Source: Candidatus Fervidifonticultor primus
GTDB taxonomy: Bacteria; Sysuimicrobiota; Sysuimicrobiia; Sysuimicrobiales; Humicultoraceae
Direction of reading: 5' to 3'
Assembly (NCBI GenBank): GCA_031459855.1
Contig: JAVKHP010000001.1
Coordinates: 1,825,842 to 1,889,841 of the forward strand
DNA: 64,000 nucleotides
The position numbers and the translations under genes were made by a program. The notes under the pieces were generated by a model, which saw only the letters and a list, made by a program, of their open reading frames with translations, was not told the DNA's origin and did not search any database. Shown one piece after another: positions 59,260-62,053 of the stretch (positions are counted from its first letter, which is position 1; every line of letters begins with the position of its first letter).

Positions 59260-59568
59260 TCAGTACACCGGCGGCGCGTAGACGTTCACCGTCACCAGCG
59301 GCGTCCGCCCGGTGTTGCGGATCTCGTGCGGCTCGCCGGCTTCGATGAGCAGGAGGGTGCCGGCGGCCAGCGCCACGCGCCGCCCCCGGACGACCGCCTC
59401 GCCCCGTCCAGCGATCACGTAGAGCCACTGGTCGGACGTGTCGTGGACGTTGTCCGCGCCGCCGGTACCCTGCCCGGGCGCGAGGACCATGGTCGCTGCC
59501 TGGGACCGGGGTGTGCCGCCGACAAGACGGAAGAAGCCGGAGGCGGCCGCGGCATGGACCAGTTTCAT
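59260..59568 (-). CDS. Small cupin-domain protein (102 aa)
   Basis: ..MVLAPGQGTGGADNVHDTSDQWLYVIAGRGEAVVRGRRVALAAGTLLLIEAGEPHEIRNTG.. is cupin_2-like (G(X)5HXH..E / PxGxxHxxxN). Start ATG at 59568; 53 bp downstream of the rSAM gene. Confidence 0.65.
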   Translation of the reverse strand: MKLVHAAAASGFFRLVGGTPRSQAATMVLAPGQGTGGADNVHDTSDQWLYVIAGRGEAVVRGRRVALAAGTLLLIEAGEPHEIRNTGRTPLVTVNVYAPPVY

Positions 59569-59621: not shown

Positions 59622-62015
59622 CTATCCCCAGCCCCAGGCCGCCCGCGGCACCCGCCGCCAGCGTACGTCGAAGCGCCACAGCCCCGCCGCCCGTGCGTAG
59701 GCCAGGGCCTGCTCCAGCTCGGCGCGCGTGATCCGCCGGTTGATCTCTTTGAACTTCTCTTCGGTCTTGGCCCGCCAGGCGGGGTAGTACTGGTCCATGA
59801 TGTTCACATAGGTGTCGCGCGAGAGCCCGGCCAGGTAGTTCATGATCTCGCGGGTGTCGTCCAGCGCCCCCGGCATCACCAGGTGGCGCACCAGCAGCCC
59901 GCGCACCGCCAGGCCGTCCTCGGTGACCTTCAGCTCGCCCACCTGCTCGTGCATCATGCGGATCACCCGCCGGGCGGCCTCGGGATAGTCGGGGGCCAGC
60001 AGGTAGCGGCGGCTGCGCTCGCGGTCCCACAGCTTGAAGTCGGGCATGTAGATGTCCACGACGCCGTCCATCAGCCGGATGCTGTGCTCGCTGTCGTACG
60101 CGCCGGTGTTGTAGACCAGCGGCAGCCGCAGGCCGCCCTCGACGGCGAGGAGCACGCCTTCCAGGATCTGCGGCACGACGTGCTCGGGGGTGACGAAGTT
60201 GATGTTGTGGCAGCCCTCGGCCTGCAGCTGCAGCATCATGCGGGCCAGGTCGCGGGGGGTGACCTCGACGCCCTCGCCGATCTGGCTGGTTTCATAGTTC
60301 TGACAGTTCCCGATCGCCACGCCGTGGACGAGGAAGGAATGCGCATCATCTGCGACTTCAAGATTGTAGACGGGGCCGTCGTAAGGAATGCGGGAGATGC
60401 GTCGGATGGGGACCCAAAACCCGTGTTCAGTCCGGAAGTGGCGCACGCGCTCGTCCGGCCCGATGCCTTCCCATGCCGCGCGACGGCACTTGACGTAGTA
60501 GAGGGTCTCGCGCTGCCGCACGCGACGACCTTGAAGGGTTTGGAAGCGAGACCGCGGTGTGGCGTAGAAGTATGGGAACACGCCAACGCGCAGAAACAAC
60601 GTCATCAGACCCAGCGCGAGGTCCTCGGACACGGTGCTCGCCGCGATGTAGTGGGTATGCCAGCACCCGTCGCCCGCGAGGTACGCTTCGAGGAACGCAC
60701 GCACGATGGCTTTCGGTGCAGTCGCCAGCGGAGGTGGCACGCGCTTCTGCGCGGCCCTGTGACCGCAAAGGCTCGCAAACAGTAACGCCAGCGCACTGTT
60801 GCCAACCTCCACGGTGATCGTCGTCGAACGCGTCCGCACGGACGGCGTCACGCCGAAGACCGTCTGCAATAGTGTTCGGACGTGGTGTACCTTGTCCGGT
60901 TCATGGAGGCCAAAAGAGAAGATCAACCGATGCGAGTTGGGCCGGCTCCGCGCCGAGGTCACGTGGCCCTCCGCACAGTAGTAGCCCAACAGCCGGGCTA
61001 CTCCTTCGTCCAGTTGCAGACGACACGGCACGCCCGGGCCCTTCTCGGTCTTGAAGCGTACGCGGCCCCCGCGCTCGACGAGCACATTGGGTAGATGCTC
61101 GCTGTCGTGCAATGCCAGACCGCGACGAAGTCGTCCTCGCAGGGTCCGGACGTAGGCCGGATGGTAGCCCAACGTGAGGCCCACAGCGCGGGACGTAAGG
61201 CGTGGGGAAGCGGTGGATCCCAGCAGTGCGCGCAGGAGGGCGACCGGCACCCGACGCGTCGCAGGGACGCGAACACTGGTCCGATGGTGCTCAAGCAGTG
61301 TCCTGGTGTCAATCTCGGGCACAGCGCCGTCCGCCGGCAGGCTCGGGATGAACAGGAGATGCCGCTCGGTCAGGTCTGCGGCCAGTACCTTGCGCGGCGC
61401 CGCGCCTGGAGCAGGCGCGGCGAAGATCGCGTGGTTCGCCGTCACAGTGATCGCGGGCAGGCCGTAGGGCTTGACGACGACCATCTCTCCGCGGTGCGCG
61501 TGCCGGAAGACCTTTGCGACGGGCGCCAGACGCCCTTCGTGCGTGTACACACGCAGTGAGTCGACGAAACGCACCGACCCGTCAGGAAGCGTGACCTCAC
61601 GACCCGTTGCCGAGTCGAAGATCTCTCCGATCGGCAGGGCGCCTCGATCGGTGAGGACGCGCACGTCGGGACTCAAGCAGAAGACGCAGCGCAGGTTGCA
61701 CCACGCGAAGAAGATCGTCCCCGACCCGTTCCAGCCCCGCAGGACGTCCTCCTCGCCAAAGTGGTGGAAGAACGACGACACCCGCGCGTAGCGCCCGGTC
61801 TTGCACACGGCGAAGCGGTTGGCGAGACGGTCGACCCCGCAGTCGCGCGGGCACAGCCGGCAGTCGCGCAGCGCCTCCAGCGCCTCCTCGACCTTGGCGC
61901 GCAGCCGGCCCTCCTCGTAGGTGCGGACGTACGCCGGGACGAAGTCGGCCGCGCGGATGACGAACCGCCCGTGGCCGTGGACCTCGGGCGGCATCCCGCG
62001 GCTCACCAGGACCAT
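59622..62015 (-). CDS. Radical SAM enzyme (PflA-like / AmmeMemoRadiSam-type activase) interrupted by a 458-aa intein; host ~340 aa after splicing
   Basis: N-extein ..CRLCPRDCGV..FAVCKTG..GSGTIFFAWCNLRCVF + C-extein CQNYETSQIGEGVEVTPRDLARMMLQLQAEGCHNINFVTPEHVVPQIL..GAYDS.. reconstitutes CNLRCVFCQNYE (CX3CX2C). Preferred start ATG 62015 (SD GGGGGGAAG); alternative TTG 62048 lies within a TATAAT box. Confidence 0.8.
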   Translation of the reverse strand: MVLVSRGMPPEVHGHGRFVIRAADFVPAYVRTYEEGRLRAKVEEALEALRDCRLCPRDCGVDRLANRFAVCKTGRYARVSSFFHHFGEEDVLRGWNGSGTIFFAWCNLRCVFCLSPDVRVLTDRGALPIGEIFDSATGREVTLPDGSVRFVDSLRVYTHEGRLAPVAKVFRHAHRGEMVVVKPYGLPAITVTANHAIFAAPAPGAAPRKVLAADLTERHLLFIPSLPADGAVPEIDTRTLLEHHRTSVRVPATRRVPVALLRALLGSTASPRLTSRAVGLTLGYHPAYVRTLRGRLRRGLALHDSEHLPNVLVERGGRVRFKTEKGPGVPCRLQLDEGVARLLGYYCAEGHVTSARSRPNSHRLIFSFGLHEPDKVHHVRTLLQTVFGVTPSVRTRSTTITVEVGNSALALLFASLCGHRAAQKRVPPPLATAPKAIVRAFLEAYLAGDGCWHTHYIAASTVSEDLALGLMTLFLRVGVFPYFYATPRSRFQTLQGRRVRQRETLYYVKCRRAAWEGIGPDERVRHFRTEHGFWVPIRRISRIPYDGPVYNLEVADDAHSFLVHGVAIGNCQNYETSQIGEGVEVTPRDLARMMLQLQAEGCHNINFVTPEHVVPQILEGVLLAVEGGLRLPLVYNTGAYDSEHSIRLMDGVVDIYMPDFKLWDRERSRRYLLAPDYPEAARRVIRMMHEQVGELKVTEDGLAVRGLLVRHLVMPGALDDTREIMNYLAGLSRDTYVNIMDQYYPAWRAKTEEKFKEINRRITRAELEQALAYARAAGLWRFDVRWRRVPRAAWGWG
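60306..61679 (-). other. Intein (~458 aa) with LAGLIDADG homing-endonuclease domain, inserted between F and the third Cys of the CX3CX2C motif
   Basis: Block A CLSPDVRVLTDRGALPIGEI; block B AITVTANHAIF; LAGLIDADG motifs LLGYYCAEGHV and FLEAYLAGDGCW; block F/G PVYNLEVADDAHSFLVHGVAIGN followed by +1 Cys (CQNY..). Penultimate His replaced by Gly. Confidence 0.8.
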
Positions 62016-62047
62016 CGCGCGCTTCCCCCCAGGGCCATGTCCCTTCA

Positions 62048-62053
62048 ATTATA
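62048..62053 (-). promoter_or_regulatory. Perfect TATAAT hexamer (minus strand) ~33 nt upstream of the rSAM ATG
   Basis: ggcTATAATTGaagggacATGgcc on the minus strand, seen directly. Confidence 0.3.

Follow-up and report, generated by a model that had tools for sequence, protein, structure and literature searches.

What kind of element interrupts the iron-sulphur motif of a conserved enzyme, and can the enzyme be made in spite of it? These questions are raised by a gene on the minus strand of a 64,000-nucleotide stretch of the Candidatus Fervidifonticultor primus assembly (contig JAVKHP010000001.1, positions 1,825,842 to 1,889,841), which we call the window. The gene encodes a PflX-like radical S-adenosylmethionine (SAM) protein that is split by an insert directly upstream of the codon for the third cysteine of its [4Fe-4S] cluster motif. 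We judge, with a probability of about 0.88, that this insert is a genuine mobile class 1 intein carrying a LAGLIDADG homing endonuclease. The observations that carry this judgement are the anatomy of the insert, its membership of a widespread family, the occurrence of empty, full-length and mini alleles among close relatives, its foreign base composition and the purifying selection acting on the gene.

The open reading frame (ORF) spans 59622..62048 on the minus strand and measures 808 amino acids when counted from its first TTG. The ATG at 62013-62015 yields a 797-amino-acid precursor and fits the N termini of homologues (MVLxSR...). This precursor is 100% identical to database protein P0121 (797 amino acids), from an Armatimonadota metagenome-assembled genome (MAG), for which NCBI gives the name 'MAG: LAGLIDADG family homing endonuclease [Armatimonadota bacterium]'. 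The insert is in frame, its first codon is Cys (TGC, 61677-61679), its last residues are Gly-Asn (AAC, 60306-60308), and the codon right after it is again Cys (TGT, 60303-60305). With vertical bars at the junctions, the protein reads CNLRCVF|C...VAIGN|CQNYE, and its parts are as follows.

59622..62015, minus strand: complete gene for the precursor, 797 codons and a stop codon (59622..59624).
61680..62015, minus strand: N-extein, amino acids 1-112, ending in ...WCNLRCVF; G+C content at third codon positions (GC3) 0.95-1.00.
61680..61700, minus strand: first two radical SAM cluster cysteines, in CNLRCVF (Cys-7 and Cys-3 relative to the intein).
60306..61679, minus strand: intein, 458 amino acids, protein residues 113-570, CLSPDVRV...HGVAIGN.
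59625..60305, minus strand: C-extein, amino acids 571-797, beginning with Cys+1 (60303-60305), the third cysteine of the cluster motif; QNYETSQ comes next.

Deletion of the insert leaves a 339-amino-acid radical SAM protein with the motif CNLRCVFCQNYE, which is identical in the intein-free homologue P0002 (90% identity overall); the tryptic junction peptide of the spliced protein would be CVFCQNYETSQIGEGVEVTPR. A preliminary description of this locus had given the insert coordinates, the 458-residue length, the flanking residues and a penultimate Gly, all of which prove exact on translation of the ORF. No second copy of the PflX gene or of the intein is present in the window.

The sequence blocks of an intein and of its endonuclease can be located within the insert.

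61641..61679, minus strand: block A, with the Cys1 nucleophile (codon 61677-61679); TIGR01445 matches amino acids 1-86, and Cys1 is invariant in a 19-sequence alignment (A1).
61431..61442, minus strand: block B, T-x-x-H (T80-A-N-H83), with Thr80 and His83 invariant in the family.
60960..60992, minus strand: LAGLIDADG motif 1, LLGYYCAEGHV, with the predicted catalytic Glu; matched by LAGLIDADG_3, with G, C, A and G invariant and E at least 90% conserved; aligns to PI-PkoII.
60663..60695, minus strand: LAGLIDADG motif 2, FLEAYLAGDGC, with the predicted catalytic Asp; GDG invariant; aligns to FLEGYFIGDG of PI-PkoII.
60327..60374, minus strand: block F, PVYNLEVADDAHSFLV, with F:4 Asn and F:13 His, both invariant; aligns with VYDLSVED of PI-PkoII.
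60306..60326, minus strand: block G, HGVAIGN, with the penultimate Gly and the terminal Asn, of which the Asn is invariant.

Profile matches agree with this layout. The insert scores 31 bits against the NCBIfam model intein_Nterm (TIGR01445; cut-off 24.5; residues 1-86) and 46 bits against Pfam LAGLIDADG_3 (PF14528; cut-off 22.5), and these scores, together with the roughly 65 protein clusters that have a homologous insert at the same position, exclude a chance resemblance. Its best full-model NCBIfam match is NF045703, an 'exception' model for the intein-containing radical SAM protein Tes. A sequence search aligned the endonuclease core, including both LAGLIDADG motifs, with PI-PkoII (PDB 2cw7; E-value (E) 3.6e-17). 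An AlphaFold2 model of the intein, built with 19 family members, has a predicted local distance difference test score (pLDDT) of 89 and a predicted template-modelling score (pTM) of 0.85. The top Foldseek matches of this model in the PDB are intein endonucleases only, namely PI-PkoII (2cw7, E 2e-24), TliVMA, PhoVMA, PI-SceI and PI-PfuI; the free-standing enzyme I-DmoI comes next and matches the endonuclease half. The model predicts a HINT fold, with complete intein structures as the best PDB matches, and also the alpha-beta-beta-alpha-beta-beta-alpha pseudo-dimer fold of LAGLIDADG endonucleases such as I-DmoI and the cores of PI-PkoII and PI-SceI. The assignment as a full-length LAGLIDADG intein, already proposed in the preliminary description, is borne out by TIGR01445 and PF14528 above their cut-offs, by the model and by the conserved blocks, with PF14890 below its cut-off.

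The presence of the element varies among close relatives of the host. Among the 45 proteins that share at least 76% extein identity with the window, 35 have an empty site, three carry full-length inteins, and seven carry mini or degenerate versions (154-242 amino acids), with every insert located at CNLRC[VQ]F|C...N|CQN. Close relatives therefore present all three states of the homing cycle, these being the empty, full-length and mini-intein alleles. One mini-intein locus (L002, 3225-4706; JGI 3300062571 contig Ga0598072_007534) has exteins 94% identical to those of the window, and its intein corresponds to that of the window with residues ~116-421 cleanly deleted, leaving 154 amino acids whose retained halves are 80% identical. 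This allele represents a natural minimal splicing domain of the intein family. Another locus (L001) has an empty site, where the DNA is colinear with the reconstituted site of the window.

These relatives also bear on whether the arrangement could be an artefact of assembly or binning that fused a free-standing homing endonuclease gene into a radical SAM gene. The MAG origin of the sequence and an NCBI product name that mentions only a LAGLIDADG family homing endonuclease are compatible with such an error. However, the junctions are in frame, and dozens of assemblies made independently in different studies place them at exactly the same codon. The flanks of the window and of L002 are also syntenic, to the left as well as to the right (S9 peptidase, PflX, cupin, DJ-1/PfpI, MFS). 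We consider the probability of an artefact to be close to negligible.

Is the intein likely to splice? Conservation was judged on 57 full-length relatives and on alignment A1. Cys1, Thr80, His83, the Asn and His of the F-block motif PVYNLEV..DHS, the terminal Asn and Cys+1 are all invariant or nearly so, as are the acidic residues of LLGYYCAEG and AGDG. Cys1 is never substituted by Ser in the more than 130 sequences examined. The predicted nucleophile set is that of a class 1 intein as defined in PMC4031507. We rejected a class 3 intein, which has a WCT signature, Cys at F:4 and no position-1 nucleophile, because Cys1 is present and F:4 is Asn. A bacterial intein-like (BIL) domain was likewise rejected, given that Cys+1 is invariant and that the site is the most conserved motif of the host. 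The N|C junction is invariant in the family as well, and the proposal that the insert lies before the third cysteine of CX3CX2C and recruits that residue as its +1 nucleophile is well founded.

Several points weigh against this interpretation. Gly replaces the His that is usual, though not required, at the penultimate position (G:6) of a class 1 intein, and Asn replaces the usual Asp at F:4. Two further intein models fall below their cut-offs, namely intein_Cterm (TIGR01443, 15.1 versus 15.6) and Pfam Intein_splicing (PF14890, 22.6 bits versus 35.8). In addition, the window derives from a MAG, and expression of the gene, splicing and endonuclease activity are predictions. The two residue changes and the two low scores are what might be expected of a dead, non-splicing relic, whose host gene would effectively be a pseudogene.

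We nevertheless regard such a relic as very improbable. The frame is intact over 797 codons. The ratio of nonsynonymous to synonymous substitution rates (dN/dS) for the exteins is 0.18, whether the window is compared with the mini-intein allele or with the empty one, and the value for the retained splicing halves is 0.235. An insert in the cluster motif that failed to splice would abolish the activity of the enzyme and loosen selection on it, and the constraint on the exteins argues for splicing. Mini-inteins keep the splicing blocks while the endonuclease is lost. Finally, more than 100 intact copies from bacteria and archaea share these atypical residues without exception. At the penultimate position, 52 genome loci have Gly (20), Ser (16), Ala (12), Lys (3) or His (1). 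The penultimate His is missing from about 5% of functional inteins, and the common residues at F:4 are Asp, Cys and Trp, a list from which Asn is absent (PMC4031507). Given that both deviations are family-wide and conserved, they suggest a variant catalytic set rather than decay.

The base composition of the gene indicates how recently the intein may have arrived. GC3 is 0.962 for the exteins and 0.764 for the intein, compared with a median of 0.91 for long ORFs elsewhere in the window. Measured in 60-codon windows, it drops from 0.95-1.00 to 0.68-0.83 at the N-terminal junction and returns to 0.93-0.98 at the C-terminal junction. This step makes the intein DNA look recently imported.

It is possible, if rather unlikely, that splicing has been kept while the endonuclease is inactive in this lineage, such that the element is now inherited only vertically because its precise loss is rare. 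Mini-inteins and remnants are common in close relatives (P0001, P0014, P0015, P0039 and P0048), which shows that the endonuclease decays readily, and one relative (P0178) has lost the Glu of motif 1 (CAGGS). The window copy, however, keeps the acidic residues of both LAGLIDADG motifs and the conserved lysine of KRVP, its endonuclease domain is modelled with high confidence, and its low GC3 suggests a recent arrival.

For a mobile class 1 intein, the following course of events can be proposed. The HINT domain of the 797-amino-acid precursor would fold, and Cys1 would bring about an N-S acyl shift at the Phe112-Cys113 bond. Cys+1, the future cluster ligand, would then attack the thioester to form a branched intermediate, Asn458 would cyclise to free the 458-amino-acid intein, and an S-N shift would restore the peptide bond. 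The product would be a 339-amino-acid enzyme with an intact CNLRCVFCQNYE motif, able to take up its cluster. The released intein, or the precursor itself, would cut intein-free alleles at ...TGCGTCTTC^TGTCAGAAC..., and repair would copy the element into them (homing). The candidate cleavage target at the empty site can also be given as TGGTGCAACCTGCGCTGCGTCTTC^TGTCAGAACTATGAAACCAGCCAG.

The preliminary description had further argued that the SAM-cluster site cannot exist until the protein splices. The precursor is indeed almost certainly catalytically dead, since the insert places 458 residues between its cluster loop and the remainder of the barrel. However, it still spells CX3CX2C (CNLRCVFC), because Cys1 of the intein takes the position of the third cysteine, and the argument needs qualifying in this respect. 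The intact three-cysteine string matters for any possible redox or metal control of splicing, a subject to which we return below.

Which enzyme does the intein interrupt? The spliced product scores 45.7 bits against Pfam Radical_SAM (PF04055; cut-off 29.5) and contains CNLRCVFC, whereas the unspliced protein barely matches (29.7 versus 29.5) and does so in two separate stretches. Homologues of the host number in the thousands; the nearest are 339-amino-acid intein-free Armatimonadota proteins with up to 90% identity. JGI names homologues with 80-93% identity 'PflX' or 'putative pyruvate formate lyase activating enzyme', and it is by transfer of these JGI annotations only that we classify the host as PflX-like (COG1313). 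No PflX-specific model matched the host in the curated libraries scanned. Two other assignments were tried and rejected. The host is not an AmmeMemoRadiSam protein (TIGR04337, 17.1 bits versus a cut-off of 220), nor is it a bona fide pyruvate formate-lyase activating enzyme (PFL-AE), as judged by TIGR02493 (25.5 versus 231.75) and PRK11145 (15.2 versus 375).

No relative of solved structure was found for the spliced extein by sequence at E <= 0.01. A model of the 90%-identical protein P0002 (pLDDT 87) has E. coli PFL-AE (3c8f/3cb8) as its nearest solved fold. The two share the partial TIM-barrel radical SAM fold (template-modelling (TM) score 0.73 normalised to PFL-AE, E 2e-10) and the N-terminal CX3CX2C cluster loop. 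In contrast, their sequence identity is only 17-19%, and PflX has a longer C terminus and an extra N-terminal region of about 90 amino acids with four invariant cysteines. The earlier view of the host as a radical SAM protein (PF04055) holds; its assignment to the AmmeMemoRadiSam type does not.

Two features of the host locus, and one further feature of the intein, complete the description.

61803..61862, minus strand: four-cysteine motif of the host, CRLCPRDCGVDRLANRFAVC, amino acids 52-71; all 22 intein-free homologues compared have C52, C55, C59 and C71.
59260..59568, minus strand: downstream cupin gene, 102 amino acids, a conserved neighbour of PflX in the window, L001 and L002.
61119..61199, minus strand: conserved helical module of the intein, LTSRAVGLTLGYHPAYVRTLRGRLRRG, intein amino acids 161-187, between the splicing domain and the LAGLIDADG core, recognised by conservation and by helices in the model.

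The four-cysteine motif has the spacing CxxCxxxC...x11...C and is without counterpart in PFL-AE; it probably binds an auxiliary Fe-S cluster or a metal such as zinc in proteins of the PflX family. A cupin gene of about 100 amino acids also lies directly 3' of PflX in L001 (2352-2672, overlapping PflX) and in L002 (4756-5064), and the pairing may be a clue to the function of PflX. The helical module, whose pattern LTS....LGYHPAYVRTLRGRLRRG is strongly conserved, may be an extra helix-turn-helix element that binds DNA. Pfam gave no match to the module in the window copy, and a weak match to HTH_38 (E 7e-4, below cut-off) was obtained in one AmmeMemoRadiSam-hosted relative only.

How widely is this insertion site used? 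A search with the intein alone recovered the clusters mentioned above (about 65 at 90% identity), all of them radical SAM proteins, from sources that include Armatimonadota, Rokubacteria, Gaiellaceae and Pyrinomonadaceae. Several of these relatives bear the JGI label 'PflX/intein/homing endonuclease', and three of the hosts (P0178, P0180 and P0183) are true AmmeMemoRadiSam enzymes, with 252-300 bits against the cut-off of 220. When 1.84 billion representative proteins were searched with a profile, 23,233 of them matched at E <= 1e-3. Among the 150 matches listed, all 31 that cover the N-terminal end of the intein sit directly before the last cysteine of CX3CX2C (CX4CX2C in two cases). The host types among the approximately one dozen proteins classified from this search are PflX-like, AmmeMemoRadiSam, B12-binding (PF02310 plus PF04055) and one SPASM-like protein.

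Two unusual groups of proteins were noted in the course of this survey. P0253 and P0292 are B12-binding-related hosts in which the intein precedes the last cysteine of the CX4CX2C variant, CW[YW]GKCTF|C. P0204, P0214, P0223 and others are 3000-4900 amino acids long and align to the intein profile in 10-13 separate stretches; more than one intein, or LAGLIDADG units in repeated copies, may be present in them.

With each species represented by a single genome, a scan identified 214 loci encoding a relative of the intein, of which 80 were retained. An uninterrupted intein of 444-469 amino acids lies at the site in 78 of the 80. The bacterial carriers among the 80 include Chloroflexota, Armatimonadota, Rokubacteria, Acidobacteriota, Gemmatimonadota, Rhodothermus, Bipolaricaulia and Proteobacteria, and the archaeal carriers include Calditenuis, Thermoplasmata, and DPANN and Asgard lineages. 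One carrier is a cultured isolate, Peristeroidobacter soli JW-3 (L033, RefSeq NZ_RYEV01000003.1:352949-357358). Its intein of 453 amino acids lies at CNLACKF|C...N|CQNWDM, in a host that resembles the AmmeMemoRadiSam type by motif.

Judged by these sequences, CX3CX2C is a recurrent landing place for predicted inteins across at least four radical SAM families in bacteria and archaea. The motif is highly conserved in DNA and supplies the obligatory Cys at +1. The reconstituted target is well conserved around TGC...TGC......^TGCCAGAAC, which could plausibly allow occasional ectopic homing from one paralogous family to another. A viral vector was considered and rejected: no close relative was found on the viral contigs of IMG/VR, where the scan gave only distant matches (20-30% identity) to the endonuclease and the C-terminal part of the profile, none of them at a radical SAM site.

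The location of the intein raises the additional question of whether splicing is conditional. Cysteines are present at -7, -3, 1 and +1 in every family member examined, and this, along with the strict retention of Cys1, is what would be expected if Cys1 were locked by a disulfide with Cys-3, or by a metal or Fe-S centre together with Cys-7 and Cys-3, such that the enzyme matured only under reducing conditions. A native disulfide between Cys-3 and Cys1 controls splicing of the Pyrococcus abyssi MoaA intein, whose host is oxygen-sensitive, according to reviews (PMC3922620, PMC10663303). Inhibition by zinc and by disulfides is documented for other inteins in the reference list of PMC4031507. However, the patchy distribution of the element (which is absent from 35 of the 45 closest relatives) and its foreign GC3 suit a selfish element better than a retained regulator. 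Moreover, the cysteine geometry follows unavoidably when an intein that begins with Cys1 is placed before the third cysteine, and hence it gives no evidence of selection for regulation. We consider conditional splicing unlikely on balance; it would add a function to the mobile intein proposed here rather than replace it.

A broader version of this idea is more doubtful still. In it, the landing site would be superfamily-wide, Cys1 would stand in for a cluster ligand, and splicing, together with the maturation of oxygen-labile radical SAM enzymes, would depend on redox state or on whether the hybrid site C-x3-C-x2-Cys1 holds an Fe-S cluster or a metal. If true, an intein-based sensor of oxygen or iron would have been reused in PflX, AmmeMemoRadiSam, B12-dependent and SPASM-like enzymes, and probably in MoaA and Tes enzymes, of bacteria as well as archaea.

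These findings have practical consequences. The NCBI name of the protein hides a conserved PflX-like radical SAM enzyme, and its product should be annotated as intein-containing. Four cysteines (-7, -3, 1 and +1) flank the splice junction of oxygen-sensitive enzymes, a geometry shared with the P. abyssi MoaA intein, where it underlies a redox switch. The misannotated protein also offers a starting point for testing whether redox state or iron gates splicing in radical SAM enzymes. The existence of a cultured carrier, P. soli JW-3, makes the choice between a parasite and a redox- or iron-gated maturation switch directly testable. Natural inteins that are predicted to function with a penultimate Gly, Ser or Ala and with Asn at F:4 are of some interest for the splicing mechanism and for protein engineering.

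Literature searches found no paper that mentions an intein alongside PflX or 'pyruvate formate lyase activating'; intein and radical SAM were co-mentioned in unrelated contexts, and PflX alone returned nothing relevant. Undocumented in the literature searched are the PflX allele, the CX3CX2|C site common to several radical SAM families of bacteria and archaea, and the Asn at F:4 and Gly, Ser or Ala at G:6 that characterise the whole family. That radical SAM proteins can contain inteins has been established by experiment (MoaA) and by curated annotation (NF045703), and partial intein annotation exists in databases. The novelty of the position, which the preliminary description implied, is overstated in view of the NCBI record for P0121, the JGI intein labels, NF045703, MoaA and the use of the site in hundreds of genomes.

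Among known systems, the P. abyssi MoaA intein also has a radical SAM host, and its extein Cys stands three residues before Cys1, the spacing of CX2|C seen here. Its disulfide blocks splicing under oxidising conditions and has been described as a redox trap in an oxygen-labile host (Callahan et al. 2011, as reviewed in PMC3922620 and PMC10663303). In contrast to the window protein, the host is a GTP 3',8-cyclase from an archaeal hyperthermophile, and its site may be either the CX3CX2|C of the SAM cluster or the CX2C of the auxiliary cluster of MoaA. The tetraether lipid synthase (Tes) represented by NF045703 is colinear through its intein into the C-extein with one protein of our set (P0258), whose intein lies at CX3CX2|C; from these coordinates, the Tes intein is probably inserted at the same point. 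The Tes host, however, is an archaeal lipid enzyme, and with a score of 35 against a cut-off of 1700 the window protein is not a member of that family.

The inteins of solved structure, PI-PkoII, TliVMA/PhoVMA, PI-SceI and PI-PfuI (2cw7, 7qss/7qsu/7qst, 1vde and 1dq3), share the architecture of a HINT domain combined with a LAGLIDADG endonuclease. They are matched by Foldseek at E 2e-24 to 3e-12, with TM scores up to 0.79 normalised to the target, and the LAGLIDADG motifs of PI-PkoII align residue by residue. Their sequence identity is 9-19%, in contrast, and their hosts are DNA polymerase, V-ATPase and ribonucleotide reductase; in one sequence alignment, PI-PkoII has Asp at F:4 where the intein family of the window has Asn. 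Inteins are known to cluster in the conserved cofactor-binding motifs of ATPases and replication proteins, the most conserved functional motif of a superfamily being the preferred location (Novikova et al. 2016, PMC4760082); the main text of that survey makes no mention of radical SAM, MoaA or Fe-S proteins. As in the cases described there, independent or ectopic insertions pile up at the critical motif of the superfamily, but the motif here is the ligand set of a metal cluster and not a nucleotide-binding loop. The element itself is a typical intein with a LAGLIDADG endonuclease, and its location fits the rule that inteins reside in the most conserved motifs of their hosts (PMC4760082).

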